A stretch of 53,430 nucleotides of DNA from a virus (lineage: Duplodnaviria > Caudoviricetes). The DNA is taken from positions 1-53,430 of IMG/VR virus record IMGVR_UViG_3300042312_000048; one strand, written 5' to 3'. The position numbers were made by a program, and so were the translations under genes. Under the pieces are notes generated by a model. It saw only the letters and a program-made list of their open reading frames with translations. It ran no database searches and had not been told where the DNA came from. Positions 1-45,320 of the stretch are shown in pieces; positions within the stretch are counted from its first letter, which is position 1; the number at the start of each line of letters is the position of its first letter.

Positions 1-3000
1 AAGTCCAGTTAATGTTCCTAAACTTGTTACGTTTGGTTGAGCCGCAGTAGTTAGTGTACCTGTTAATAGAGTACCGCTTACGTTTCCTGCGCTAACATTA
101 CCTGTTACACTCAATGATGTTAGTGTGCCAACGCTAGTGATGTTAGGTTGAGCCGCAGTTGTTACAGTACCTGCTGTAGTTGCCGCACCTGTCAATGCAC
201 CAACGAATGTTGTTGAAGTTACACTAGTTAAACCTGCTACTGTAGTAACAGTGCTTCCTAATGTAAGTGCAGTGTTTCCTAAAGTTACACTTGCGTTTGC
301 TAATCTTGCTTGTGCTAATGTACCAGTTGAAATATTACTTGCGTTCAATGCAGTTAGAGCAGAACCATTACCAGTAAATACACCTGTGTTTGCAGTAAAT
401 GCTACTGCCGTCACTGTGCCATTTACACCTAAGCCAGTTAGTGTACCAACTGAAGTAATATTAGGTTGTGCTGCTGTTGTTACAGTACCTGCAACTGTTG
501 CTGCTGGAACTGTACCTGTCACGTTAGCGCCAGTAATTGATGCTAGATTTGCACCTGACAAGCCTGCTGCGAATGTTGCGCTTGAACCTACTAGGCTGTT
601 CCAAGTACCAGTTGTTACTGTACCCAATGCTGTAACTTGTGTCTGTGAAGCATTTACGCTAAATGTTAGATTAGAAAGAGTTAAGCCGGTGCCTGCAAGA
701 TAAACTTGTGAACTACTGAACTGAGCGAATTCAATATTAGAAGTACCGAATGTGATTGTTCCAGTAGGAGCATCAAGAACATATGCACTACCTTTGTTGA
801 CACTACCACCGCTTACAAAGAAGTAATTGTTGAGACTCAATTCATCGGCACCAGGACCGTATGAATCAGCATCAGTTGCACGGGTGATAACTGTCGTGCT
901 TGTGTAAGTATAGACACCGTTATGCGCGGCGTTTGCTTCGTTCTTGACTAATATACGAGTACCAACTGTTTGAACGTTTGCTGTATCAATCAAGTTGAAT
1001 GTACCAGTAGTTGTCAATGTTGCACCAACACCTGCTGTACCGTTGTTATAAGTGATTGTTCCGCCAGTAGCACTAGCCAATGTACCAGTTGTGGCTGCTA
1101 TTACACCTTCGTGGTATACAAGAGCAGTACTTGCTAAATCATCAACATATTGCTTAGTTGCCGCGTCAGTACTTGCTACCGGAGTTGCAAGGTTAATAAT
1201 ATTGTTGCTGGTCATATCTAGATTACCAGCAATACTGCTTACACCTGTACCAGTTACACTTAGTACACCTGTAGTTGTTAAGTTACCTGCCGCAACGTTT
1301 GCTGTTACTGCTAGTGAACTTAGTGTACCAACACTTGTAATATTTGGCTGAGCGTTAGTATAAACTGTACTTGCAACAAGAGCATTGCCTACTTGACCAG
1401 TTACATTGCCACCTGCTAGTTGTGATAAACCACTACCATTGCCTGTGAATACACCTGTATTTGCTGTGATATTGGCAGCAGTGATATTGCCATTTACACC
1501 GAGACCTGTTAGCGTACCAAGACTTGTTACGTTAGGCTGTGCGGCAGTTGTCAATGTGCCAGTTAATAAACTTGCACCTATCGTGCCGCTGTTTGCGTAT
1601 ACATTACCAAATGTACCATTACCTGTTACTGCTACAGATGTTAGAGTGCCTAATGATGTAATATTTGGCTGTGCTGCATCATTGACAGTATTTGCTACGT
1701 TGCTTGTTGCAGCACGTAAATTTGCTACCACTGTGGTTGATGAAACTACTAATGGAGCAGTGCCGGTTGATACGTTTGATATTAACTGTGGGGCAGTTAC
1801 GTTAGCACTTGCTAGTACTTGAGCAGTACCAAGATTGCCAACATTAGCATTACCTGTCGCATTTAATGTTCCTGCTACATTTACGCCTGTGCTTGTGATT
1901 ACTAATTCATTTGGCGTACCAGTCGCAGAAATGTTTATATTGCCGTTAGCAGTAATACTAATATTACTATTACCGTTCTGTAACAATCCGCTATTGATCG
2001 TAGTGATATTACCGGTAGTGATTATGGCAGTTGCCGCGCCGATATTACCTACGTTTGCATTGCCTGTAGCATTCAAAGTACCTGCAATATTTGCGCCTGT
2101 AGTTGTTACAACTAATACATTAGCAGTGCCGCCTACATCAAAATTGATGTTACCGTTTGCTGCAGGAATTGATATATCTGAATTTCCGTTGGCTAGATTG
2201 CCTACAAAATTTGCTGCTGTAACATTGCCTGTCACTGCTAGGCTGACTAATGTACCAACTGAAGTTATATTTGGTTGTGCAGCAGTATATACGGTGCCTG
2301 CTACTAATGCGTTTGCTACTTGACCAGTGACGTTACCACCTGCAATCGCGCTTAAACCACTGCCGTTACCAGTAAACACGCCTGTGTTTGCCGTGATATT
2401 AACAGCATCAATGTTGCCGTTTACACCAAGACCAGTCAATGTGCCTACTGATGTGATATTTGGTTGTGCTGCTGTATAGACAGTACCTGCGACAAGGGCA
2501 TTTGCTACTTGACCAGTGACGTTACCACCGGTTATTGAACTTAGTGCTGAACCATTACCGCTTACATTTGTGAATGCACCGCTTGTTGCACTAACATTAC
2601 CTGCACTTACGTTACCTGTAACTGTTAATGATGACAATGTGCCTACACTAGTAATATTTGGTTGAGCCGCAGTTGTTAGTGTACCACCTAATGTAGTACC
2701 GCTGATGCCAGTTGCGCTGACATTGCCTGCACTTACGTTACCTGTAACTGCTAAACTTGTTAGTGTACCGACTGAAGTGATGTTAGGCTGTGCGGCTGTT
2801 GCTAATGTGCCTGTCAATAACGTACCGCTTAGATTACCTGCGCTGACATTACCTGTTACAGTAAGTGCTGATAGTGTACCGACTGAAGTGATATTAGGTT
2901 GTGCCGCTGTTGTCAATGTACCGGTTAATAGACTTGCTCCAACTGTACCGCTGTTCGCATAGACATTACCTGCTGTTGCATTACCTGTTACTGCTAGGCT

Positions 3001-5004
3001 TGATAATGTGCCAACACTTGTGATATTTGGTTGTGCGTTTGTATAAACTGTTCCAGCAACTAATGCGTTGCCTACTTGACCAGTTACATTAGCGCCGCCT
3101 AGTGCTGATAAGCCACTACCATTACCTGTAAATACGCCAGTATTTGCTGTGATATTGACAGCAGCAATGTTGCCATTTACACCAAGACCAGTCAATGTGC
3201 CTACTGATGTGATGTTTGGCTGTGCTGCTGTGACTACTGTACCGGCAGTTGTAGCGTTACCGCTAAGATTTGCTGTTACGATATTTGCGCTAAAGCTACC
3301 GTCTGCGTTACGAACAACTACAGTATTTGCTGTGGCTGCTGTTGCTGTGTCATAGCCATCCAATAAATCTGCGTTTAAATTTGTTACCTTAGTAGTTGAT
3401 GCCACAGTCAATGGAGCAGTACCAGTTGCTACGTTTGATTCTAATGTTGAAGCAACTACTTTGCCTGCTGTATTAACATTACCTGCGCTTGCATTACCAC
3501 TTACAGCAAGTGATGATAACGTGCCTAGGCTAGTAATGTTTGGTTGTGCTGCTGTATAAACTGTGCCGGCTACTAATGCATTTGCTACTTGACCACTAAT
3601 ATTACCTGAAGGAATATTTGTCAATCCTGCTGCATTACCGAAATATACGCCGGCGCGCAAGTTACCATATGTTGAGAAAGTAACTACTTCGTTTGTTATG
3701 CTTGCTTGACTTGCTAGACCGAACTCTGCGTTGCTGACATCCCAGCCCATAAACGCAATTTGTGCCTGACTGTCATAATAATTTAGAGCAGAACCTACGT
3801 CTTTACCGCTGTTACTTGTTGGTGCTGCACCGTTTGGTCCTGTTTGTAACTGAATGATTGGATCTTCTACAGAGAATGTTTCCACGTTTACATAGACAAG
3901 ATTGCCATCTACTGTTAAGTTACCTGTGATGATTGCGTTACCACTTACTGATAGATTACCGCCTGTAGATAAATTGCCTGCGCTTGCATTTCCAGTTACA
4001 GTAAGTGAACTTAATGTACCTACTGATGTTATATTTGGTTGTGCATTAGTTGTCAATGTGCCAGTTAGTAAACTTGCACCGATTGTGCCACTATTTGCAT
4101 ATACATTACCACCGGTAATATTACCTGTAACTGCTACAGCAGTTAATGTACCTAATGATGTAATATTTGGCTGTGCTGCGTCTGCTACAGTATTTGCCAC
4201 ATTGCTAGTGGCTGCACGTAAATTAGCAACTACAGTTGTTGAAGTAACAACTAAAGGTGCTGTCCCTGTTGAAACATTTGAAATAAGTTGTGGTGCAGTT
4301 ACGTTAGCACTTGCTAGTACTTGTGCAGTACCAAGATTACCAACATTAGCATTACCAGTTACAGTTAAACCTGTTAGAGAACCAACACTAGTGATATTTG
4401 GTTGGGCAGCAGTATAAACTGTACCGGCAACTAATGCATTAGCAACTTGACCAGTGATGTTGCCTGCTGTAACATTACTAATGTTTCCACCTTCACCTTT
4501 GAGTGTTTGCGCGCCTATAGTACCAGTATTTGCCCATACATTACCTGATGTAATATGTGTTGTGGCGTTAAGATTATTGGCATCTAGATTTGCACTAACT
4601 GTAACTAAATTACTTGACTTGTTGAAAGTGAATGCTGCTGAACCACCGAATGATTCATCATCATTGAATTGAATTTGAGTGTTGCTACCACCTGGGTCAC
4701 TTAGATCCCAAGGTACGCCGTTTGAATATAGTAGGTTATCTGTTTTGACGTTGCCTGCTGCGATATTACCGCTTACTGTTAGAATGTTATTGTTGAAATC
4801 GTATGTGAATGCTGCTTCACCTGTTAAAGCAGTACCATTTATAAAGACTACTTGTGCGTTAGATGCGGCTACTGTTGGAAAATTTTCAACATTTCCATCA
4901 CTAGTTTTGACACTCAACGTGTCACTATCATCTAAGAAAATAGTACCTTTACCGGCTGGGGGTGTTGGTACTGTGTTCGCTGCGTTCTGTTTTAAAATTA
5001 GCAT
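1..5004 (-). CDS. Very large fibre-like virion structural protein (>1668 aa, truncated at window edge; missing from ORF track)
   Basis: ATG at 5004 with AGGAG at 5018-5014; begins MLILKQNAANTVPTPPAGKGTIFLDD; same frame reads AAQPNVTSLGTLTGL at positions 45-1; many TxAQPNITSVGTL repeats, NADLLDG motif, modules shared with neighbouring genes. Frame checked at both ends, not codon by codon. Confidence 0.88.
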   Translation of the reverse strand, partial: MLILKQNAANTVPTPPAGKGTIFLDDSDTLSVKTSDGNVENFPTVAASNAQVVFINGTALTGEAAFTYDFNNNILTVSGNIAAGNVKTDNLLYSNGVPWDLSDPGGSNTQIQFNDDESFGGSAAFTFNKSSNLVTVSANLDANNLNATTHITSGNVWANTGTIGAQTLKGEGGNISNVTAGNITGQVANALVAGTVYTAAQPNITSVGSLTGLTVTGNANVGNLGTAQVLASANVTAPQLISNVSTGTAPLVVTSTTVVANLRAATSNVANTVADAAQPNITSLGTLTAVAVTGNITGGNVYANSGTIGASLLTGTLTTNAQPNITSVGTLSSLTVTGNASAGNLSTGGNLSVSGNAIITGNLTVDGNLVYVNVETFSVEDPIIQLQTGPNGAAPTSNSGKDVGSALNYYDSQAQIAFMGWDVSNAEFGLASQASITNEVVTFSTYGNLRAGVYFGNAAGLTNIPSGNISGQVANALVAGTVYTAAQPNITSLGTLSSLAVSGNASAGNVNTAGKVVASTLESNVATGTAPLTVASTTKVTNLNADLLDGYDTATAATANTVVVRNADGSFSANIVTANLSGNATTAGTVVTAAQPNITSVGTLTGLGVNGNIAAVNITANTGVFTGNGSGLSALGGANVTGQVGNALVAGTVYTNAQPNITSVGTLSSLAVTGNATAGNVYANSGTVGASLLTGTLTTAAQPNITSVGTLSALTVTGNVSAGNLSGTLLTGTLATAAQPNITSVGTLTSLAVTGNVSAGNVSATGISGTTLGGTLTTAAQPNITSVGTLSSLTVTGNVSAGNVSATSGAFTNVSGNGSALSSITGGNVTGQVANALVAGTVYTAAQPNITSVGTLTGLGVNGNIDAVNITANTGVFTGNGSGLSAIAGGNVTGQVANALVAGTVYTAAQPNITSVGTLVSLAVTGNVTAANFVGNLANGNSDISIPAANGNINFDVGGTANVLVVTTTGANIAGTLNATGNANVGNIGAATAIITTGNITTINSGLLQNGNSNISITANGNINISATGTPNELVITSTGVNVAGTLNATGNANVGNLGTAQVLASANVTAPQLISNVSTGTAPLVVSSTTVVANLRAATSNVANTVNDAAQPNITSLGTLTSVAVTGNGTFGNVYANSGTIGASLLTGTLTTAAQPNVTSLGTLTGLGVNGNITAANITANTGVFTGNGSGLSQLAGGNVTGQVGNALVASTVYTNAQPNITSVGTLSSLAVTANVAAGNLTTTGVLSVTGTGVSSIAGNLDMTSNNIINLATPVASTDAATKQYVDDLASTALVYHEGVIAATTGTLASATGGTITYNNGTAGVGATLTTTGTFNLIDTANVQTVGTRILVKNEANAAHNGVYTYTSTTVITRATDADSYGPGADELSLNNYFFVSGGSVNKGSAYVLDAPTGTITFGTSNIEFAQFSSSQVYLAGTGLTLSNLTFSVNASQTQVTALGTVTTGTWNSLVGSSATFAAGLSGANLASITGANVTGTVPAATVAGTVTTAAQPNITSVGTLTGLGVNGTVTAVAFTANTGVFTGNGSALTALNASNISTGTLAQARLANASVTLGNTALTLGSTVTTVAGLTSVTSTTFVGALTGAATTAGTVTTAAQPNITSVGTLTSLSVTGNVSAGNVSGTLLTGTLTTAAQPNVTSLGTLTGL

Positions 5005-21969: not shown

Positions 21970-22611
21970 TTATTTAATTTTCAATTCCTTGATGAGACGC
22001 TTTACTTCCTCACCTAAGAAATTTTGTACCTTTTTGTTGCCCCTTGCGTCCCTAGCGATTTCTAAAACTTTATGACCATGCTTCATATTCATGAGGCTTT
22101 CATATATTGCTTTAGGATATGCGTTAGGTGCGCTTGGTTGTGCAACGATATCAACAGTGATTATTTCAAAATCACTTACCTTGCCGTCCATGTCGCTTAC
22201 ATTACCTGATCCACGACTTGAAACGCCTAGTTTCACACCACTCTCCAACATAGTCTTTACTAATTGACCCATTGGAGTTGGTAAAATCTTTAGTTTGCCG
22301 AAACCGTTTGCGCCATCCATCCACATGTTTGTGATCATATGGCTAACACGGTCTAGATTAATCTTAAGGTCATCTGGGTGATCGACTTCACCTAATACAG
22401 AATAACCTTCTTGAATTTGTGTGTTTAACGTATTGACAGCAGTTTCAATTTCAGAAACGGGGTAAACACGCTCATTTGCGTTCTTTACCCCACCCTGAAT
22501 AAAGATGCCCTTCATGTAGAGGGTCTTTAATTCATCGTTGCCTTCCTTTACGGATTCAACGATCATGTTTGCTCTATCAAACGTTAAGTGTTCCCTGAGA
22601 TACAAAGCCAT
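21970..22611 (-). CDS. gp21: Prohead protease, T4 gp21 family
   Basis: GIFIQ...KN.N.RVYP, LGEVDHP, LGVSSRGSG, DIVAQPSAPNA motifs. Confidence 0.96.
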   Translation of the reverse strand: MALYLREHLTFDRANMIVESVKEGNDELKTLYMKGIFIQGGVKNANERVYPVSEIETAVNTLNTQIQEGYSVLGEVDHPDDLKINLDRVSHMITNMWMDGANGFGKLKILPTPMGQLVKTMLESGVKLGVSSRGSGNVSDMDGKVSDFEIITVDIVAQPSAPNAYPKAIYESLMNMKHGHKVLEIARDARGNKKVQNFLGEEVKRLIKELKIK

Positions 22612-31107: not shown

Positions 31108-32211
31108 TTAATTCGTTAAAAATCCTACAGCATAGGGTTCATCTACAAGAGAACTGTGACACTTGTGTTCACATTCTACCCATGCCTTTTTTGTATCATC
31201 AAAACTATTAAAGAGGTATTTCCAAACATCATCATTTAAAACTTCTTCTAATGATTTTGTTTTAATACAAACTTTATCTCTGTATACTTGATGAAAACTA
31301 TCTTTCCAATAAATTCTTTTACGCTCAGTTTCGTTATAGTCATAGGGAAAACTTACCCAACTGCATGGGTGTAGTACTCCATCAGCACTTACATATAAAC
31401 CGCGATTACCTATACTACACATAGGAGTTATAAATTTATTATGCTTACTTGACACTTCTTTATATAAATCATAATTTTTTTGCAGGTATGAATCGTTGTT
31501 TTGTTTTCTACCTGTGATATCTTTAAAATATCTTTCGTACCTATGTGTCTTGCTAATGAATTCGGCTCTAGGTTCTAATGGATCAGTATTACCACCGAAC
31601 GACTCGCCATACTTACTACCGAATTTCGTGCTATAAGTTAGTTGTAATCCGTCGCAACCCTTTTCTTTTGCTAGATTATAGATAGTATCTAAATGGTCTT
31701 GATTAAACGAAAATACAATAGTTGCCCAATAAACGAATGCAGGGCTTTCCTTACACATGATTTCCATACCAGTCATTATAGATTCCCAATCATTGTTGAC
31801 TCTGTATAGATCGTTAGATTTTTCATCATACCCATCTATACTAAAGTTTATGGTATCATACTCATTTGATAGTTTTGCGAATTTTCGCCACCAGTCTGGT
31901 TTTTTGTAACTTCCATTTGTTATAGTATAGATATGAATCTTTTCGTTATGACTTTTGATATACTCAATAATTTCAAGGTACTGTGAAGCATAAATCGGAT
32001 CTCCGATATCACCGCACATTGTGATTCTCTTTACTTCATTCTTAAGTAAGTCAGGAGTTAATGTATTCTCAAAAAACTTTAAATCAAGTTCATGATTAAA
32101 CCACGGTACACGATCTGTGTCATTTCTAGGACATCTAGGACATTGTAGCGTACATTTGCCGCTTACTTCAAAATGCCAATGATATAATTGCCATGGATAT
32201 TTTAAGTTCAT
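31108..32211 (-). CDS. Radical SAM enzyme with SPASM/twitch-like C-terminal cysteines
   Basis: CTLQCPRC (CxxxCxxC), GDP, TNG, FSIDG, C..G...YVSADG.LHPC, terminal CEHKC. Confidence 0.92.
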   Translation of the reverse strand: MNLKYPWQLYHWHFEVSGKCTLQCPRCPRNDTDRVPWFNHELDLKFFENTLTPDLLKNEVKRITMCGDIGDPIYASQYLEIIEYIKSHNEKIHIYTITNGSYKKPDWWRKFAKLSNEYDTINFSIDGYDEKSNDLYRVNNDWESIMTGMEIMCKESPAFVYWATIVFSFNQDHLDTIYNLAKEKGCDGLQLTYSTKFGSKYGESFGGNTDPLEPRAEFISKTHRYERYFKDITGRKQNNDSYLQKNYDLYKEVSSKHNKFITPMCSIGNRGLYVSADGVLHPCSWVSFPYDYNETERKRIYWKDSFHQVYRDKVCIKTKSLEEVLNDDVWKYLFNSFDDTKKAWVECEHKCHSSLVDEPYAVGFLTN

Positions 32212-32810
32212 GGACTTATCTCAATAAATTTTATATTGTCATCAAATAAGATTTTGATGATTTGTCCTGCAACATATTTGGCTGTTAGATGTTTATTTTG
32301 ATAAATGTCCTGATATCTTTCAGTATCATTTTTATATCTGTTTTTATTAAAATTTGTTTTAGTAAGACCTACACGAACCTCTAAAGTCCTTATATTAGGA
32401 TACTCTATTTGAAGCATACTATTAAAGTCTGACAATGATTTTTTAGTTAAACTATAAGTTAAATTATTAGGGTAATATCTTTTATTATTAGTGCTAGTAA
32501 TATTAACAATCTTACAATTTGAATTTTGTTTTAATACTTTTTGTGTCAGTAAGACAGGAGATAATAAGTTGGTATTTAAAATAGAAACGACATTATTTGG
32601 ATCATGGTTATCAAAAATTATCTTACCGCCTATATCTGTACCGGCCATGTTAATTAGTATATCAACCTCGGGCATGTCAAATTCTATAACGTCTTGTATA
32701 TTAGATAAGTCTAAAATATCCCGGGTGAGCGGTATAATCTCAAACTTGTCAAGACTATTGGTTAATTCTTTTCCAATACCGCTATTGGCACCCGTTATTG
32801 CTATTTTCAT
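32208..32810 (-). CDS. Short-chain dehydrogenase/reductase (SDR)
   Basis: TGANSGIG, INMAG, IVNITS, catalytic YSLTK. Confidence 0.92.
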   Translation of the reverse strand: MKIAITGANSGIGKELTNSLDKFEIIPLTRDILDLSNIQDVIEFDMPEVDILINMAGTDIGGKIIFDNHDPNNVVSILNTNLLSPVLLTQKVLKQNSNCKIVNITSTNNKRYYPNNLTYSLTKKSLSDFNSMLQIEYPNIRTLEVRVGLTKTNFNKNRYKNDTERYQDIYQNKHLTAKYVAGQIIKILFDDNIKFIEISP

Positions 32811-36669: not shown

Positions 36670-38367
36670 ATGGCTACTTGCGCTGAATTATCACAACAGG
36701 CACAGAAATTTGCTACAGCATTAGCACAAGCAACAATAAGAGGAGACAACCTCTTAAAGTTACCTATACCTAATACAACTAACCCTTCTGAAACCCTAGC
36801 TGTACAGACACAGATTACCGGCTTAGTCAACAGCATGAATATAGTTAATGCTGAAATAAACAAACAACTTAGCAATTTAAATTCTACTAGAAGTCAACAG
36901 GAAGCACAGAATTGTCCTAGAGACGGCTATTTTAATACTAGAAAGGCGGCAGAAAAAACATTAGCAGCATTACAAAGTAAAACTCAAGTAGCACAACAAA
37001 CTTTTCAAAATTTACCACCTGCGCCATCATCTAATACTGCTGTTGTGCCCAGCGGCAATACTTTGATCACGCCTGGGACGCAAGCCCCGAACGATTTTCC
37101 AACAATTACTGTTATAGGTACTAAAATACCTGACGGCAAAATTACGGTTGCTGATCCTAATTTGGTCACGCCGTCATTAGATCCTGCACTATTAGGTCCT
37201 CCAAATATTAATACAGGACAACTTGAAGGTACTGATGTTAATATTCCTACTGGTGCAGGTAATATAGATGTTACTGCACCAAACTTAAACATCACGGGGG
37301 AATTGCAAGGTGGTGACGTAAACATCCCAACAAACGCAGGAAATATAGATGTCACAGCGCCAAACTTTGACCTTACTGAAGATGAAGAATTAGAAGAAGT
37401 CGTGGTTACTGCCAACAGAGCTCCAACAACGCAAGGTGCAGTACAAAATACTAGAAAGCAAGCATCACTAAGACAAGAAACAAATTTTGAAGCACGAAAA
37501 GACTGGCGCGTTAAGTTGTCTTTAAGCCCCGGCGCTACATATTTGTATAACGATAACTCAAATGTTTTATTAGCACCTCTAAGAGGTACTAATGGTGTTA
37601 TTTTCCCATATACCCCTAGTGTACAAGTAGGATATAGCGCAGCATATGGAAATTACCGTCCATCGGGTTCAAACTATTCATATCCATATTATGATAGTAG
37701 CGCCATAGATAGTATTTCAATAACAGGTGACTTTACCGCTCAAGATAATTATGAAGCAAATTATCTATTGGCAACGATACACTTTTTCAGATCGGTCACG
37801 AAAATGTTCTATGCATTAGACTCAAATCCTAAAGCTGGTACGCCTCCCCCAGTTTTATTTCTAACAGGATTCGGACAATTTATGTTTAACAATCACCCAT
37901 TGGTGATAACTAATTTTACATATACTACTCCAACAGATGTAGACTATATCAGAGCAGGAAACTTTACACAAGGTGCTGGGTCACAAACAAATGACAGTAA
38001 TAACGATGCCCTTAAAAAATCAACAAACTGGAATTGGGGAACATTGTTACAAAACACTATACAAAATACATTGGCTTCGGGCGCAGCAGCAATTGGTAAT
38101 TTCTTGAACTTTAGTAAAGACTATAATGTGTTGACTCCAGGTGGAGAATTAGGACAGGCTAATTGGACTTATTCAGGATTTAAAGGATTTAATTCGGGAG
38201 AAACAGCAAATCCAACATATGTACCCACTAGAATGCAGATACAACTTTCAGCAATGCCTGTACCAAGCAGACTAGATGTCAGTAACTACTTCAGTCTCAA
38301 AGATTATGCTAACGGTAAGTTGTTGAGTGGATACAACGGAAAAGGTAAAGGCGCAGGATTCTGGTAA
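36670..38367 (+). CDS. Baseplate/tail-tube junction protein (gp48/gp54-like) with long N-terminal extension
   Basis: C-terminal domain GVIFPYTP..ISITGDFT..FFRSVTKM..G.PPPV..L...G..F...P.VITNF resembles tube-initiator folds; directly upstream of gp53-like gene. Confidence 0.65.
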   Translation: MATCAELSQQAQKFATALAQATIRGDNLLKLPIPNTTNPSETLAVQTQITGLVNSMNIVNAEINKQLSNLNSTRSQQEAQNCPRDGYFNTRKAAEKTLAALQSKTQVAQQTFQNLPPAPSSNTAVVPSGNTLITPGTQAPNDFPTITVIGTKIPDGKITVADPNLVTPSLDPALLGPPNINTGQLEGTDVNIPTGAGNIDVTAPNLNITGELQGGDVNIPTNAGNIDVTAPNFDLTEDEELEEVVVTANRAPTTQGAVQNTRKQASLRQETNFEARKDWRVKLSLSPGATYLYNDNSNVLLAPLRGTNGVIFPYTPSVQVGYSAAYGNYRPSGSNYSYPYYDSSAIDSISITGDFTAQDNYEANYLLATIHFFRSVTKMFYALDSNPKAGTPPPVLFLTGFGQFMFNNHPLVITNFTYTTPTDVDYIRAGNFTQGAGSQTNDSNNDALKKSTNWNWGTLLQNTIQNTLASGAAAIGNFLNFSKDYNVLTPGGELGQANWTYSGFKGFNSGETANPTYVPTRMQIQLSAMPVPSRLDVSNYFSLKDYANGKLLSGYNGKGKGAGFW

Positions 38368-38681
38368 TGTCACAAAATAATATATACCCATCAACAAGTC
38401 CTTACAGAGACACAGAAATTTTTAATAATAAATTTCTTGACTTTATGGTCAATAGACCTTTCCCTGCATCTAGTAGCGATGTTCTTTATACATTGCCTAT
38501 CGCTTATCAATATCGTCCTGACTTGTTAGCATATCATTTATATAATGACAGCAGGTTATGGTGGGTATTTGCAGCAAGAAATCCTAATCGTTTAGGATTT
38601 GACCCTTATTTTGATTTTGTAGCAGGCATACAAATATACATACCAAAATTAGAAACATTACGTCAATATTTAGGTATATAA
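38367..38681 (+). CDS. gp53: Baseplate wedge LysM-like subunit, gp53-like
   Basis: YRPDLLAY.LY....LWWVF..RN and G..I.IP motifs. Confidence 0.8.
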   Translation: MSQNNIYPSTSPYRDTEIFNNKFLDFMVNRPFPASSSDVLYTLPIAYQYRPDLLAYHLYNDSRLWWVFAARNPNRLGFDPYFDFVAGIQIYIPKLETLRQYLGI

Positions 38682-38682
38682 C

Positions 38683-41600
38683 ATGGCAATCGTTAATGTA
38701 AATGGGCCAGATGCAACAGTAAGAAGATGGCCTAAAAGTTCTGGCTCTAGCGAATTTGTTGATATTAATATATCCGGCACAGTCAATGATAAGACATTAA
38801 AACCAGAAATGACTGTAAGATTGCCCGGTGGAAAGACTATTACCGGAGACATTAATTATTGGAATAGTATAAAATCAGCAGGTGGTGTGCCCGGTCTTAA
38901 CGAAGAACAGTCATACTATATGACTCAGTTTTTAACACAGCCTACTCAAACAGTTAAAGACTCTAGCGGTTTTCCAGTAAAATTAAAAGGATTTCCTGCA
39001 CTAAAAGAAGTTTATTCTAGCGTAGATGAAACATTAAAAGAAAGAGAAAGAGAAGATACGCTACCAGGCACAAAAACATCTACAGAGGACTTAACATTAC
39101 CTGACGGTACTAAAGTCAAGACTACAACAGTGAACGAAGTTAGTGAGCCAAGAAATCCTGCAAGCGAAAATAATCCTACTCCACAGCCTTCAACAATAAA
39201 TCAAACACCCGGCGACAATGCTGACAAGAAACAAATAGTTGGGGCAGGAGACGACGATCAAAGTCCTAATAAACAAAATACAGTAGATGGTACTAATACC
39301 GGTAGCACAGTAGCCAAAGATGAATTTGGACTTCCTGTAGGTACTATTATTGATCCTACAGGATGGGGACCATCAGCAGGATCTTCTAACTCACAGACTG
39401 ATAGTTCGGGCAAACCTTCTGGAAGTAGACGCACCTACAATCCATTAGCGCAACTTTCTAGTTATTCTTATATTATAACACTGTATATGATAAGTCCAGA
39501 TGCTTACAAAGCATTTATTGATTCTGGTAGAAAAAAGATAGATGCATTATCTAAAGCAACTCCTGTAGGTGAAGGTAGTCCTAATGTTGAAGGAGGTGCA
39601 TTGATTGTTGCTAGAACAGGGGGCAACAACACAACAGACAGAATAGGCAACATGGATTATTTTATTGATAATTTAAGAATGAGTTCTTATATCAATACTA
39701 AAACTACAGGTGCGGCGATAGCGGCTGTGAGTGAAATTTCTTTTACAATTTCTGAACCATATGGTTTTAGATTTATAACTGATTTAAAAAATGCTGTAAA
39801 AAGATTGCAAGCACAATCAACATCGGCAAGTTATAAAAGCATGACATCATTGTTTAAACAATTTTTTATATTGGGTATAAAATATTATGGCTATGATGCA
39901 GATGGTAATTTGATAAAAGGCACAGATAAACTTTATGGAAATATGGTAGATCCATTAGGCGGCGATGGTTTATTTGAAAACTTTTATGATATACAAATAC
40001 AAGATTTTAGATTTAGATTAACAGGCGATACTGTGACTTATAATGTGACCGCAGCCGTTCCTGTGACACAGAATGTGTTAGGTGTTAAAAGAGGAAGAAT
40101 ACCGACAGGGGCAACAGTACAAGGTAAGACTGTTGAAGATGCATTGATAGGTGAGTATGGTCTTTTCACAAACCTAAATAAAAAAGAAGAGGATAAACTT
40201 AAAAACGGCAATGTGACTTATCCTAATAAATTTAGTGTTGTGTTCATGGGAGAAGCAGAACAGTTAATTAAAAAATCTCCGTTAGTGACATCAAATGATT
40301 TAGAGAAAGCAAGATTTGGTGATCCGTTATTGAACACGACTAAAGAAGTTAATGAAACACAAGCACAATCACCACCTGACACTACCTCAAGAATTTTATC
40401 TTTTGGTCATGATACCTCAATAATTTCTGCGATTGAAACAATCATAAAGAAAAGTGCTTATATGGTTGATGCATTAAACACACTTTATACTAATGCTAAA
40501 GAACCTAATCCTTCACAGAAAAATTATGAACAAATTAATCAAGAACCACAAACATTAAGGTGGTTTACAGTCACTAGCGATATTAAAAAAGTTGATTGGG
40601 ATCCTAAAACAAATGACTGGGCTTATGATTTAGTTTATATCATACAAGTTTATGATATACCTAGCATGGAGACTCCATATTATAGCACAACGTCAAAGTA
40701 TAGGGGCCCTCATAAACGTTATGACTATTGGTTTACAGGGCAGAATAGTGAAGTGCTTGATTTAGATTTTACATTAGATAATACATATTTTCTTTCTATC
40801 ATGGGTTTCCCTAATAAAAATACACAACCTTCTGCTTCAACACCGGGAAATAGAGAAACAAACACTGATCAAAGACAAACGACAGGTCCAGCGGCTGGCA
40901 ATGGAAACTCTACAGCGAATTCTACTGGACTAAAAAATGACCCGCAAGCCCCGAACAATCAAGGACCATCAGAAAAAAATGCTTCAGGTGGCGGCGAATT
41001 CTCTGTAGCACCGGGCATAGTTAATAACGCAGATAAAAGTTCATCATTAGGGGTTGGTCTAGAAGCAGAAAATACTGTAGCAACTTATCTATATGATCCT
41101 CAGGCATTCAGCACTGCCAGACTACAAATTATAGGAGATCCAGATTTTCTTGTAAGAGATTCAACTACAACTATTAATAGTTTGTATAATCAATATTATA
41201 ACACAGACGGATTTACACCTAATGCAAATGGCGGACAAGTATTTGTTGAGATAGGATTCAAAGAAGGTGTTGATTATAGAGATACTGATGGATTACTAAA
41301 CATAAACGATAATATTTTATTTTTAACATATCCCGATTACGTAAAAAAAATAAGTGAAAATAGAATCGTATACATGGTAGCCCAGGTTGACAGCCTATTC
41401 AACAGAGGTAGATTTACACAAACACTTAGTTTAGTACAGCCATACTTTCCAGGTAGTTCTACTGCACCGCCAACTGCGCCTGCTCAAAGCACGCCTGCAC
41501 AAAATCCAAATAACTCACAAACTGTGAGTGATACTAGCAAGGGAACTACTACTGCCAATGATGACGCACTACAAGAAGTTCAGGTCACTGGTAGAAGAGT

Positions 41601-41727
41601 CTCTCCTGCCCCTGCAAAAACTGAAGGCAGACAATCAGATAATCTAGCGAATAAGACTGATGCAGAGTTATTCACTTTAGGTTATATGCCTGATGAATTT
41701 GATAAAGTAAGAAATGGTGGTGGCTAA
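38683..41727 (+). CDS. Baseplate hub protein (gp27/VgrG-N-like) with disordered extensions
   Basis: Position between gp53 and gp5; F.I.EP.G, I.GDP and C-terminal Y.V..V...F..G.FTQTL.L hub-type motifs. Confidence 0.65.
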   Translation: MAIVNVNGPDATVRRWPKSSGSSEFVDINISGTVNDKTLKPEMTVRLPGGKTITGDINYWNSIKSAGGVPGLNEEQSYYMTQFLTQPTQTVKDSSGFPVKLKGFPALKEVYSSVDETLKEREREDTLPGTKTSTEDLTLPDGTKVKTTTVNEVSEPRNPASENNPTPQPSTINQTPGDNADKKQIVGAGDDDQSPNKQNTVDGTNTGSTVAKDEFGLPVGTIIDPTGWGPSAGSSNSQTDSSGKPSGSRRTYNPLAQLSSYSYIITLYMISPDAYKAFIDSGRKKIDALSKATPVGEGSPNVEGGALIVARTGGNNTTDRIGNMDYFIDNLRMSSYINTKTTGAAIAAVSEISFTISEPYGFRFITDLKNAVKRLQAQSTSASYKSMTSLFKQFFILGIKYYGYDADGNLIKGTDKLYGNMVDPLGGDGLFENFYDIQIQDFRFRLTGDTVTYNVTAAVPVTQNVLGVKRGRIPTGATVQGKTVEDALIGEYGLFTNLNKKEEDKLKNGNVTYPNKFSVVFMGEAEQLIKKSPLVTSNDLEKARFGDPLLNTTKEVNETQAQSPPDTTSRILSFGHDTSIISAIETIIKKSAYMVDALNTLYTNAKEPNPSQKNYEQINQEPQTLRWFTVTSDIKKVDWDPKTNDWAYDLVYIIQVYDIPSMETPYYSTTSKYRGPHKRYDYWFTGQNSEVLDLDFTLDNTYFLSIMGFPNKNTQPSASTPGNRETNTDQRQTTGPAAGNGNSTANSTGLKNDPQAPNNQGPSEKNASGGGEFSVAPGIVNNADKSSSLGVGLEAENTVATYLYDPQAFSTARLQIIGDPDFLVRDSTTTINSLYNQYYNTDGFTPNANGGQVFVEIGFKEGVDYRDTDGLLNINDNILFLTYPDYVKKISENRIVYMVAQVDSLFNRGRFTQTLSLVQPYFPGSSTAPPTAPAQSTPAQNPNNSQTVSDTSKGTTTANDDALQEVQVTGRRVSPAPAKTEGRQSDNLANKTDAELFTLGYMPDEFDKVRNGGG

Positions 41728-41729
41728 CA

Positions 41730-44700
41730 ATGGCAACTGACGTACAAAAAAGCAAAGGTAAATTAAAGCGCAGCAGCCCTACATCGGGCGGATCTAATCC
41801 TGAACTAGTACCTAAGATAGGCATCGTCAAAAATAATAGCGACAGCACACGTTCAGGACGCATTTGGGTTTATATATCAGACAACAGCGGCACAGACCCA
41901 GAAGATAGCACTTGTTGGAGACCTGTTTTCTTTTTAAGTCCTTTTTATGGCAAAACATTGAATACTGCGCCGAATACCGGCGAAGGCAATTTCAAAGGTA
42001 ACACACATAGTTATGGAATGTGGTTCAGTCCTCCAGACATAGGAACATCTGTATTATGTGTATTTGCTAATGGTGACTTAAATTTTGGTTATTACATAGG
42101 ATGCATACCAGATCCACAAGCATTACACATGGTACCGGCTATTGGATCTAGCACATACATCGTTCCGGGATCAGGCGAAGCAAACAAGTATGGCGGTGCA
42201 ACACGATTACCTGTAACGAACGTTAACAGTAGCAATAAAGAGATCACTAACACTGGTAAATATTTAACAGAAGCGAAACCAGTACACCGATATGTCGCTG
42301 CTACAATGTGGCAACAAGGCATTTTGCGCGATCCTATAAGGGGGCCTATAAGTTCAAGTTCACAGCGTGAAAATGCAAGTAGAGTGGGTTTTGGTATTAG
42401 CACTCCCGGAAGACCTATATATGAAGGCGGATTTAACGATACTAATATAGTTGATAATTTGACCCCAGATAAAGCCGATAGTTTAAAAATTATAGGTAGA
42501 AGAGCAGGTCATAGCATAGTGATGGATGATGGCGATGTTATCGGAAGAGATCAATTAATAAGATTACGCACAGCAGACGGTCACCAAATCACTATGAGTG
42601 ATGATGGTCAAACCATTTTTATTATTCATAAAAACGGACAAAGTTATGTTGAGCTAGGTAAAGAAGGCACAGTTGACATATACTCTACAAATAGTATTAA
42701 TCTACGAACACAAGGTGATTTAAACCTACACGCAGATAACAACTTAAACATACATGCAGGAAAAAACTTAAATATTTTTGCCGGCGAGGCAATGCATGTA
42801 CAAAGCACTAAAGAATTTAAGTTAAGGGCAGGAGCAGATTTAAGTATTTTCACAACATCTATTTTTACTGCTAAAGCATCTGGTGCTATGAGTTTAGAAA
42901 GTACAGGTGATATTAGTATGGCATCATCTGCAAAAGCCTTTGTGAATGGAAGTAGAGTCAACTTAAATTCAGGCAAAACAGGTACGACTCCTAAAGAAGT
43001 GCCTGCGATAGATCAAGTATTGCATACTGATACGTTGTTTGATAGTGCAAAGGGTTATGTAGCAGCGCCTGCAAAATTAAAGAGCGTAACTAGTAGAGCG
43101 CCGGCACATGCTCCATGGACAAACGCAGGTCAGGGTGTTGATATTAAGAGTAACTTAAATGCTGGTTCAAATTTACCAAGCAAACCAAATACTGCTACAA
43201 GTTCAATTAATACAGCAGCAAGAAACGGCGGAGTCACTAATCCAGTATCAAATGCTACGATTGCAAAAACTCCCGTCAAACAAAACATCAGTAATGCTAT
43301 TGATAAAAATGCGACTCAGGCGTTGTCCGCTCAAGTTGCTACAAATGCTGCTGCAGGTCCTGCAGCCGACGCAGTGAAAAAAGGTGCGACCCTTGTTCAA
43401 AATGCTACAGGCAATAGCACTGTTGCTATTGGACAATTTGCTCAAACACCAAAACAATTAGAACAAGCAGGTATATTAAAACCTGGTTCATCAAGCCTAG
43501 TTGATAGCCTTGTAGCATCAGGATCTAATATTGCCAATGCTATACCTAGTACTCTGTTTACAGGTAAACCAGGCGCAGAAAATCTGCCTGCGTTCATCAA
43601 TAATATAGGAGCACAGCAAGAATCGTTAGCAAAGAATTTACAGATTGCACAGACAAAATTACAAAATGCTGGTGCGATAACTGGTAATGAATCAAGTACT
43701 GAAATAGGTGGTGTGATATTATCTGCTGCAAATAACGGTGTAGACAACGTATTAGGATCAATGCAAACATCTAAATTGTCAGATTTCTTACCTGGTAGTG
43801 GTCCTAACATTCAGTCCTTTACTAACAAACTAGATCAAACATTAAAAGATGTCTCACAAGGAAATTTTGCTAGCAAACTAGGTGAATCTGCAGGCGGAGC
43901 ATTGGATGGTTTACAATCATCATTGAGTGCAATGTTTAAATCTTCTTTAGGAAATGCTAAACCAACATCACAAGGAACAGCAGCAGATGCATTCAGTGCT
44001 ATAGTAAGTTCTATACCGTCATTAGTACCAAACAAACCTCAAAATCTAACAGCAGAAGCAACTAAGTCAGCAGAAAAAACGACTGCTGCATCAGTTGGTA
44101 ATGAATCTCAAAATCTTGCACAGGGTTTATTTGGAGCAGCAACAAACATAGCAACAGACAAATTATCAAGTTCAGTAGCCAAAAAATTATCAGGGAACTC
44201 ATCCGATCCATTAGTTTCTGCTGTTGTGTTACCATTAACAAACAGTTTAGCGTCCTCACTGATCGAGGCTGCTAAGCCTAAAGCAAATGTTAATGTTGAC
44301 ACTAAAAATTCAGTTGCAACTTTAGCATTGGGTGTAACAGATCCTCAAACTGCTGCAAAAAATACAGCAGATAGCGTATCTGGAATTAAACAGGCAGCAC
44401 AAACTGTGGCATCCGGATTAATCTCAACAACTGCTGCTACATTGGCATCAGGTGTAAATAATTTGCCCGGCGGCCAAGACGCTGTGTCAACTGTCAATAA
44501 TTTAGCAAGTTTAACTCAAAACATTCCTAATACAAATGATTTGAAGGTTGCTATACAAAATGGGGCGACAGATGCCATCAATAACGCACAAAATACTTTA
44601 GGTAACAATCCTACACTACAATTAATAAATGCTACAGCAAGCGATGTTCAAGCGTTAGCAAGCAAAGATGGAATAGAACAATTGATTAGTGCCGGATTAC

Positions 44701-45320
44701 CTGCTGGTAAAGTTGCTGAAGTTAAGAACGCACTATCAGCAATCACATCACAAGGCAGCGGAGTAAAGATGCCTTCTGTTGGTGTGAATACAAATGATAG
44801 AAGTTCATTAGAAGCAGGTGTTAAAGATGCTCTTGAAGATCCGGGACTACCGGCGCCTACATATGGAGAAGTTGATAGAGAAACATTAGACGATAAACGT
44901 AAACAGAAGAAAAAAGAATCTGATGCATTATATCAAACTTATCTTAAAAAAGATGAAGCATCACAAATAGCCTTCAATGATTTTCAAGATGCGCAGAAAG
45001 CATATGATACTGCACAAAAAAATCTAGTACAAGGTAGTCCAGAACTTGCCAATTTACGTCAAGCAAGAGATGAAAAATATTCAATATATGAGAAAGCATC
45101 CTTAGAAACAGATAAGGCTCTTATAGATTATGAAAATGCTTTAACCACCAATAAAACAAATAAAAATACACAACCATCTAATGTTATCGTCACTACCGGT
45201 TCTCCTGATAATAATCTTGTCGTTTACAGGTCAGTAAATGAAAAAGGTGACGAAGAAATAGGCTGGATTGAAAATAAATCACAGACTACAACGACAACTA
45301 CGAGCAAAAGAGGTTCATAA
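41730..45320 (+). CDS. gp5: Baseplate central spike, gp5/VgrG-like, with long C-terminal extension
   Basis: OB-fold (G.VK.N.D..R.GR..V.I; PPDIG..VL..F.NGD), GH.I.MDD/GHQI.MSD repeats, beta-helix LNLHA/LNIHA repeats. Confidence 0.82.
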   Translation: MATDVQKSKGKLKRSSPTSGGSNPELVPKIGIVKNNSDSTRSGRIWVYISDNSGTDPEDSTCWRPVFFLSPFYGKTLNTAPNTGEGNFKGNTHSYGMWFSPPDIGTSVLCVFANGDLNFGYYIGCIPDPQALHMVPAIGSSTYIVPGSGEANKYGGATRLPVTNVNSSNKEITNTGKYLTEAKPVHRYVAATMWQQGILRDPIRGPISSSSQRENASRVGFGISTPGRPIYEGGFNDTNIVDNLTPDKADSLKIIGRRAGHSIVMDDGDVIGRDQLIRLRTADGHQITMSDDGQTIFIIHKNGQSYVELGKEGTVDIYSTNSINLRTQGDLNLHADNNLNIHAGKNLNIFAGEAMHVQSTKEFKLRAGADLSIFTTSIFTAKASGAMSLESTGDISMASSAKAFVNGSRVNLNSGKTGTTPKEVPAIDQVLHTDTLFDSAKGYVAAPAKLKSVTSRAPAHAPWTNAGQGVDIKSNLNAGSNLPSKPNTATSSINTAARNGGVTNPVSNATIAKTPVKQNISNAIDKNATQALSAQVATNAAAGPAADAVKKGATLVQNATGNSTVAIGQFAQTPKQLEQAGILKPGSSSLVDSLVASGSNIANAIPSTLFTGKPGAENLPAFINNIGAQQESLAKNLQIAQTKLQNAGAITGNESSTEIGGVILSAANNGVDNVLGSMQTSKLSDFLPGSGPNIQSFTNKLDQTLKDVSQGNFASKLGESAGGALDGLQSSLSAMFKSSLGNAKPTSQGTAADAFSAIVSSIPSLVPNKPQNLTAEATKSAEKTTAASVGNESQNLAQGLFGAATNIATDKLSSSVAKKLSGNSSDPLVSAVVLPLTNSLASSLIEAAKPKANVNVDTKNSVATLALGVTDPQTAAKNTADSVSGIKQAAQTVASGLISTTAATLASGVNNLPGGQDAVSTVNNLASLTQNIPNTNDLKVAIQNGATDAINNAQNTLGNNPTLQLINATASDVQALASKDGIEQLISAGLPAGKVAEVKNALSAITSQGSGVKMPSVGVNTNDRSSLEAGVKDALEDPGLPAPTYGEVDRETLDDKRKQKKKESDALYQTYLKKDEASQIAFNDFQDAQKAYDTAQKNLVQGSPELANLRQARDEKYSIYEKASLETDKALIDYENALTTNKTNKNTQPSNVIVTTGSPDNNLVVYRSVNEKGDEEIGWIENKSQTTTTTTSKRGS

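Follow-up and report, generated by a model that had tools for sequence, protein, structure and literature searches.

The window analysed here, the whole 53,430-base stretch of the IMG/VR virus record IMGVR_UViG_3300042312_000048, encodes two baseplate proteins carrying a motif whose sequence cannot be told apart from that of the TonB box in bacterial TonB-dependent transporters. One copy is located in P0002 (565 amino acids; 36670..38367, + strand), a tail-tube-initiator-like protein that matches phrog_12050 at residues 267-430 (expectation value (E) 2e-39), and the other in P0001 (1014 amino acids; 38683..41727, + strand), identified by its AlphaFold model and by Foldseek as a central hub of the gp27, Mu gp44 or VgrG type. 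The occurrence of these two motifs is non-chance, and in the models both lie on arms predicted to be flexible, in two proteins that by homology cap the distal end of the tail tube. In our view, selection has probably shaped the motif as a mimic of the TonB box.

The first site, LEEVVVTANRAP, comprises residues 241-252 of P0002 (37390..37425, + strand). It overlaps the peptide ELEEVVVTANR at 37387-37419, whose leucine is encoded at 37390, forms part of the longer stretch EDEELEEVVVTANR that starts at 37378, and is preceded by EDEE. The second site, LQEVQVTGRRVS, comprises residues 963-974 of P0001 (41569..41604, + strand) and is directly preceded by NDDA. For this protein the initial annotation had reported a TonB-box-like motif, DDALQEVQVTGRR, at 41560..41598 in the hub tail, and translation of 38683-41727 confirms it as residues 960-972 (in the context TTTANDDALQEVQVTGRRVSPAPA). 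Both sites share the pattern L-[EQ]-E-V-x-V-T-[AG]-x-[RK], flanked by acidic residues on its N-terminal side and by basic residues and proline on its C-terminal side. The 30-base coding stretches of the two sites differ at 10 of their 30 bases, which agrees with the earlier claim that different DNA underlies them; because of these differences nothing points to recent copying of DNA from one site to the other.

Motif scoring and specificity for TonB boxes

Both sites were scored on a 12-column TonB-box matrix obtained by unsupervised expectation maximization (EM) on 107 TonB-dependent transporters from five bacterial genomes. These genomes yielded 249 Plug matches; the 50 residues upstream of 110 of them were taken and three pattern-scan seeds were dropped, leaving the 107 used, and the E. 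coli K-12 transporters stayed outside the training set. The EM motif reads L-[ED]-E-V-[VIL]-V-[TV]-[AG], followed either by Y-G-T-Q (SusC type) or by x-[KR]-R-E. In leave-one-out scoring the true boxes reached a median of 25.1 bits (10th percentile 6.6, quartiles 13.6 and 29.2), and on the same matrix the sites in P0002 and P0001 scored 22.3 and 21.2 bits, respectively. The third best among the 17,309 scoring windows of the 30 proteins encoded in the stretch reached 2.4 bits, and in 100 shuffles of the proteome the highest score was 16.3 bits, with a mean maximum of 8.1. A search of all six frames with the regular expression L.E[VI].VT[AG].[RK] returned exactly two matches, one in P0002 and one in P0001. 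The argument, made from the sequence beforehand, that a pattern common to both proteins speaks against a single chance hit is borne out by these scores and matches.

In bacteria, searched with one genome per species, the core octapeptide LEEVVVT[AG] was found in at least 121 stretches, and among the 80 loci fetched it precedes a Plug domain, which begins about 13-20 residues further on, in 75. Because of this association the octapeptide appears, at the level of sequence, close to diagnostic of a transporter box. Two of the remaining five loci (L052 and L055) end at a contig edge, L055 having the N-terminal extension typical of SusC-like transporters, and three (L094, L114 and L119) encode other proteins. 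PMC7782687 describes DEVVVTG as the experimentally validated Ton box of the Bacteroides thetaiotaomicron SusC-like protein Bt1763, and reports that deleting this box or mutating it to alanines caused growth defects like those following the loss of SusD.

P0001 and P0002 contain no Pfam Plug or barrel domain, and no Plug was found in the whole window, so neither protein is a TonB-dependent transporter. The motif is too short for family and structure-database searches: an NCBIfam scan of 50-residue pieces around each site returned no family, and phmmer with a 37-residue piece against the PDB sequences gave only chance-level matches, to an oomycete RxLR protein. When matrices derived from the two Flavobacteriia genomes and from the three other genomes were compared, the phage sites scored about equally on both, so that the motif does not discriminate between host phyla and does not single out the proteobacterial host suggested initially.

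The two carrier proteins and the placement of the sites

P0002 consists of a helical N-terminal domain (residues 1-120), a disordered linker (122-277) and a tail-tube-initiator-like C-terminal domain. Its tblastn matches are virion structural proteins of jumbo phages of the 121Q, CBB and PA5oct type, and its homologue is named “baseplate tail-tube protein” in the fEgEco12 record. In the AlphaFold model, built from 21 sequences, the predicted local distance difference test (pLDDT) is about 30 over residues 122-277, the stretch that holds site 1. Foldseek searches with the C-terminal domain retrieved PVC/AFP baseplate chains and “baseplate-initiators” of cyanophage A-1(L), with E around 1e-3 and template modelling (TM) scores by target of 0.3-0.45. 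Site 1 lies just N-terminal to this conserved domain, and a box is found at the equal position in the related loci L002-L005, L007-L010 and L024. Just upstream of site 1, the linker sequence contains two copies of a 27-residue repeat, DVNIPT..AGNIDVTAPN (37234..37365, + strand). Its box-like element I-D-V-T-A-P-N suggests that the copies are possibly decayed boxes; within P0002 no 12-residue window other than site 1 reaches 0 bits, the linker repeats included.

P0001 begins with a small N-terminal domain (residues 14-88), followed by a disordered N-linker (88-243), a core composed of residues 244-700 and 787-924, and a disordered tail (925-1014). The AlphaFold model, based on a 44-sequence alignment, has an overall pLDDT of 61.6, with values of 70-94 in the core and low confidence for residues 88-243, 701-786 and 925-1014. 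Foldseek assigned a probability of 1.00 to VgrG, Mu gp44 (1wru) and T4 gp27 (1k28_D, 2z6b_D), with a TM score by target of 0.53 for Mu gp44, which points to a hub fold and upholds the hub identity proposed initially. A search of 1.84 billion representatives gave 1296 relatives of the protein at E<=0.001. The site had been described as lying in a Ser/Thr/Pro/Gln-rich tail after the last hub strand; in the model the last strand spans residues 910-918, residues 925-1014 have a pLDDT of about 30, and S, T, P, Q, N and G make up 53% of the tail, all in agreement with that description. The N-linker contains the peptide KDEFGLPVGTI (39316..39348, + strand), which scores below 0 bits and aligns with an intact box, KDELEEVVVTG, in L007-L010 and in the relative P0004; judging from this alignment, it is probably a decayed box.

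The two sites thus have the sequence of a TonB box and lie in an extended segment that is predicted to be unstructured. As in bacteriocin-type arms, the box stands on a predicted disordered arm of a protein that enters from outside, the place of both proteins in the virion being assigned by homology. It had been suggested that several components of the tail tip are tagged for TonB in this way. Motifs that could act as such tags are present in two of them, P0002 and P0001, on predicted disordered arms and with retention in relatives, and are lacking in the gp5-like spike: the weaker third box proposed for its tail, SNVIVTTGS, is present at 45177-45203, but at -6.1 bits it was rejected as a TonB box.

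Two further features of the hub arms were observed. A second conserved short motif, DAELF.LGYMPDE...R.G, was recognised by alignment in the last 22 residues of P0001 (DAELFTLGYMPDEFDKVRNGGG; 41659..41724, + strand). It is kept in the window, L002, L003, P0005 and L007-L010, although the tail is otherwise variable, and in P0004 and P0008 a TonB-box-like site is found in its place. In addition, both disordered arms of P0001 contain an acidic A/G-D-D-D patch, encoded at 39250-39258 and 41560-41568 in the window. The patch is conserved across the hub family, box-less clades included (“GxADDDxG” and “VADDD” in the consensus), and in the hub tail of the window it stands immediately N-terminal to the box.

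Retention and turnover of the motif in related loci

A scan of viral contigs with P0001 provided 33 related loci with 23-100% identity, in which sites were called at a threshold of 12 bits. Gene order was the same in all 33, and no additional gene goes with the motif-bearing ones. Sites of at least 12 bits were present in both the P0002 and the hub family in nine of these loci (L001-L005 and L007-L010) and in the P0002 family alone in L024; all such sites were confined to these two families, out of 110,646 residues of + strand open reading frames (ORFs). Relatives whose hubs are about 45% identical retain the motif in both proteins, with differing positions and one to three copies; more distant relatives and the cultured ones lack it. 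Among the 150 best hub representatives, a fourth match to the regular expression, in P0017, lies inside the folded core and scores below 12 bits.

In the hub, the LQEVQVTG of site 2 is identical in L002-L005, with changed residues after it. The box is located in the C-terminal tail in the subclade of the window and in the N-linker in L007-L010, whose tail lacks a box at the aligned place, and P0004 has both. In the P0002 family, L024 and all nine loci share the box just before the conserved domain. L002-L005 and L007-L009 have a second one further upstream, and in the homologues of L007-L010 a loop of the folded domain holds an additional, inserted box. To judge from these alignments, a motif of which each protein keeps at least one copy while the position turns over behaves as a selected short linear motif and not as a fixed structural contact.

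The sites might also be read as cleavage sites. The consensus of T4-type prohead proteases is L-x-E with the cut after E, both sites contain L-x-E, and a T4-type prohead protease (Peptidase_S77) is encoded in the window at 21973-22611. We consider cleavage by this or another protease very improbable, since P0001 and P0002 are parts of the baseplate, not of the head, and the conservation runs seven to nine residues past the E, which such a cleavage site would not need.

With the hub as query, tblastn found no match among cultured phage records at 1e-5. A search for a phage-encoded TonB_C domain in the window and in four related fragments, all five incomplete, gave no match.

The same motif in unrelated viral proteins

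The octapeptide was also searched for in viral contigs, where 80 loci were fetched from 100 stretches, giving 82 ORF hits in 34 clusters. Two of these clusters are the families of the window itself and two are real transporters with Plug and barrel. Complete TonB-dependent transporter genes were seen on the viral-classed contigs L283, L286 and L344, and may represent auxiliary genes or host flanks.

Several of the other clusters contain proteins of the tail. Cluster 1 (20 ORFs) comprises proline-rich proteins of 770-1090 amino acids, which match tape-measure profiles at their end, as well as the protein annotated as tape measure in Caulobacter phage GB2A, and have up to six boxes about 26-63 residues apart. 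Arrays of six boxes were found in L277 (ORF 1307-3943, - strand; boxes at 447, 489, 534, 579, 615 and 641) and in L281 (ORF 717-3359, + strand; boxes at 429, 492, 530, 566, 602 and 638). Cluster 6 consists of gp48-like tube caps (phrog_230) with one or two boxes N-terminal to the fold, and cluster 9 of a tail-tube-like protein (Phage_TTP_2) whose box, at residue 55, is likewise N-terminal to the fold. These tube caps and the Phage_TTP_2 protein carry their boxes in an N-terminal extension and come from unrelated viral contigs (L331 2-1255, + strand; L287 932-2161, - strand; L304 1839-2576, + strand). In clusters 1, 6 and 9 the octapeptide is followed by x-[KR]. When these clusters were compared with P0002, the alignment covered the motif alone.

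In nine of the 30 remaining clusters, all members have K or R at position +2 after the octapeptide (background 0.121, binomial P = 0.007), a residue that is absent from the search pattern yet common to true boxes. The octapeptide matches in portals, capsid-related proteins and connector proteins, which are without K or R at +2, look like chance on sequence grounds. The tape measure of Caulobacter phage GB2A and the gp48 regions of Pseudomonas phage pf16 and Pelagibacter phage HTVC008M contain no site of 8 bits or more, and when the array of six boxes from L277 was compared by tblastn with 50,697 phage records, no match emerged. Finally, a family seen in L282, L294, L329, L338, L343 and L356 measures about 680 amino acids within the loci, has no Pfam or PHROG match and starts with M-A-(D/E)...LEEVVVTA-x-[KR], the box being at the N-terminus.

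Evaluation of the TonB-box reading and alternative explanations

A number of observations weigh against a TonB box in the functional sense. Each of the genomes used to train the matrix was chosen for holding one LEEVVVT[AG] transporter, and the 107 sequences come from the top of a list of 249. Among the related loci, 23 of 33 have no site, and neither have 147 of the 150 best hub representatives out of the 1296 relatives, the three others carrying sites, one of them two. None of the six cultured relatives checked (XaC1, Vibrio phage 2.275.O, Phosso, CBB, 121Q and PA5oct) has a site of at least 12 bits, and because of this the motif is an accessory feature of a single clade, and tails of this type do not require it. 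A strand of alternating hydrophobic residues could also pair with some other partner, and TonB binding by the arms is something we infer by analogy. The octapeptide itself shows no raw enrichment in viral contigs, where it occurs in 100 stretches compared to 90 and 22 for two controls in which its codons were scrambled. As to the check put forward in the initial annotation, enrichment of the motif in tail-tip proteins of phages, no raw excess in viral contigs is seen; what does emerge is the recurrence of the motif in tail-tube-end and tape-measure-like proteins.

Since entire transporter genes occur on some viral contigs (L283, L286 and L344) and the octapeptide is no commoner in viral contigs than one of its scrambles, the sites could be supposed to be products of chance, or neutral remnants of captured transporter DNA. 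Such an origin is hard to reconcile with two sites at 21-22 bits compared to a shuffle maximum of 16.3, with the lack of a Plug domain or other transporter sequence in the window, and with the retention of the motif across about 45% identity while the flanks diverge, and we give it hardly any credence.

A different proposition is that the motif forms a strand by which the proteins dock to something other than TonB, such as a baseplate or tube protein, an assembly chaperone or another periplasmic host protein, and that its likeness to a TonB box reflects convergence on a good edge strand. The motif is indeed an alternating hydrophobic beta-strand that occurs only in tube-end structural proteins, cultured relatives do without it, and one scrambled control is equally frequent in viral contigs. 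A fixed contact, however, should keep its position and copy number, and the site shifts between N-linker, C-terminal tail and loop in one to three copies. Moreover, the likeness spans 10-12 residues and takes in the x-[KR]-[KR] found after true boxes, the motif-bearing loci hold no additional gene and have the same order in 33 of 33 cases, and the octapeptide is nearly confined to transporters in bacteria (75 of 80). Docking to another partner is in our view unlikely, and selected mimicry of the TonB box remains the preferred reading.

Possible role in phage entry

P0001 and P0002 are made in the cytoplasm and the binding domain of TonB is periplasmic; any contact between them must for this reason take place on entering a new cell. 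We would place the probability that the motif binds TonB during entry, by analogy with known boxes, slightly above even. Contraction of the sheath would drive the tip of the tube through the outer membrane, after which the arms of the hub and the tube initiator would be exposed in the periplasm, as the location of these proteins at the tube tip and the T4 model of entry suggest. There the boxes would add a beta-strand to the C-terminal domain of the host TonB, as the boxes of transporters and of group B colicins and pyocins do. With less certainty, the ExbB-ExbD-TonB motor, which is driven by the proton-motive force, might tether the tube tip to the inner membrane. Alone or jointly with tethering, and again less certainly, the pull of TonB on the arms might help to dislodge the hub that plugs the tube, comparable to the pulling of a transporter plug. 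According to PMC5413942, the contact between TonB and BtuB withstands enough force to open a channel in the transporter, and the strength of this interaction makes a pull on the hub arms mechanically conceivable. That TonB serves to remove the hub is nevertheless doubtful. A predicted complex of the C-terminal 100 residues of TonB (genome G003, L498, from a tonB-exbB-exbD operon) with hub residues 940-1014 scored 0.02 (mark 0.34), a value that carries no weight either way.

It is tempting, though rather speculative, to see in these data a recurrent and as yet undescribed entry device of tailed phages, in which one to six boxes on arms of the hub, the tube initiator or cap, or the tape measure would, once shot into the periplasm, hook TonB-ExbBD for pulling or anchoring, so that the tube tip opens and the DNA is led to the inner membrane. 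Such a device would have had several origins among unrelated tail proteins. The opening of a contractile tail's tip within the periplasm, and the energy source for the last steps of DNA entry, are old open questions. If the proposed role is true, the phage borrows the outer-membrane motor of the cell, as colicins and pyocins do, TonB-ExbBD joins the host factors that set host range and resistance, and mutations in tonB or exbBD might protect against phages that have no transporter as receptor. The motif would also provide a sequence signature for finding such phages in metagenomes.

Relation to known systems

Compared to the box of TonB-dependent transporters (DEVVVTG in Bt1763, or the form L-E-E-V-[VIL]-V-T-A-x-[KR]-R of the 107 transporters), the phage sites have the same sequence over 10-12 residues, a setting likewise predicted to be unstructured, and basic residues after the box. 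Unlike transporters, their carriers have no signal peptide, Plug or barrel, are virion proteins from the cytoplasm, and vary in the copy number and position of the box.

Group B colicins (B, D, Ia and M), pesticin and S-type pyocins carry TonB boxes in unstructured translocation domains. They resemble the proposed mechanism in that a foreign protein with a box mimic on a disordered arm uses the TonB motor of the host for its entry, and differ in being soluble toxins that thread through a transporter, whereas in the phage the box stands on the hub and the tube initiator of a contractile tail, whose tip, together with DNA, would be the cargo. The boxes could even bind TonB just as in these bacteriocins, the arm threading through a receptor transporter and TonB pulling on it, or could titrate TonB and so block the uptake of competitors. 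The long disordered arms rich in S, T, P and Q, which are like the unstructured translocation domains of bacteriocins, and the proline-rich six-box arrays in tape-measure-like proteins fit this idea. It is rendered improbable by the location of the carriers, which lie inside the baseplate at the end of the tube instead of on fibres, and by the mechanical crossing of the outer membrane by contractile tails; as to titration, a hub trimer and an initiator ring at T4 stoichiometry would bring a handful to some twenty boxes per virion, which is too few. An engagement of TonB by arms exposed after contraction, as outlined in the preceding section, is the reading that we prefer.

The g3p protein of filamentous phages binds domain III of TolA as a co-receptor, and there too a virion protein engages, at entry, a periplasm-spanning host protein of the Tol/Ton class coupled to the proton-motive force; it differs in that a folded domain binds TolA, not a short linear box TonB, and in belonging to another virus type. 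Infection by phages T1 and phi80 is TonB-dependent via the receptor FhuA, which makes them alike in their dependence on TonB, a dependence that in their case runs through FhuA; we know of no box on the virion of either phage. Box mimicry by bacteriocins and the use of TolA by filamentous phages are thus known already, and the new element would be a mimic of the TonB box on tail-tip proteins of a phage. A literature search on titles and abstracts, with partial coverage of journals, found no description of a TonB box on a phage virion protein.

The puncturing device gp27-gp5 and the tube end gp48/gp54 of T4, with their homologues in 121Q, CBB, PA5oct and XaC1, have the same gene order as the window and the same hub fold, and their tube-end fold appears to be shared by P0002. 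The cultured homologues are shorter, with about 210-290 amino acids in the P0002 family (478 in Phosso) and 660-795 for the hub where annotated, and are without the box-bearing arms. The P0002 homologue of Sinorhizobium phage Phosso (L494 6179-7612) has an N-terminal extension with a weak box-like sequence, NLDEALVSAQSAR, which at 9.6 bits is the best, and the sole one of its kind, among the six cultured relatives.

Genomic context of the window

The window is a fragment of a jumbo myovirus of the T4 superfamily, with an estimated completeness of 15% according to CheckV and a G+C content of 37.9%. The head genes encoded in it are a T4-type major capsid protein, the prohead protease mentioned above and a portal, and further genes encode a gp26-like baseplate protein, a gp55-like late sigma factor and SbcCD-like nucleases. 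A Shine-Dalgarno core was found upstream of nine of its 30 genes, compared to 5.9% of random 18-mers.

The baseplate block runs on the + strand from 36670 and comprises P0002, a gp53-like protein, P0001, a gp5-like spike, gp25-like and gp6-like proteins and a very large structural protein. The gene of the gp53-like baseplate wedge subunit (104 amino acids; 38367..38681, + strand; phrog_7145 with E 1e-24, Pfam Phage_gp53 with 24.9 bits) sits between the two motif-bearing genes. The order late sigma factor, P0002 homologue, gp53-like, P0001 homologue, gp5-like, gp25-like and gp6-like is annotated fully or mostly in the six cultured phages listed above. In PA5oct, the homologues of P0002 and P0001 are both annotated as virion proteins, detected by electrospray ionization tandem mass spectrometry (ESI-MS/MS).

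The gp5-like spike protein (1196 amino acids; 41730..45320, + strand; phrog_13211 with E 8e-35) has no lysozyme match in Pfam. Its C-terminal half consists of 700 residues rich in Ala, Ser, Thr and Asn and ends in six threonines, and in L007-L010, L023 and other loci the gene is split into two ORFs. Outside the baseplate block, a radical SAM enzyme and a short-chain dehydrogenase adjoin each other at 31111-32810 on the - strand, flanked by nuclease genes and a PD-(D/E)XK endonuclease.

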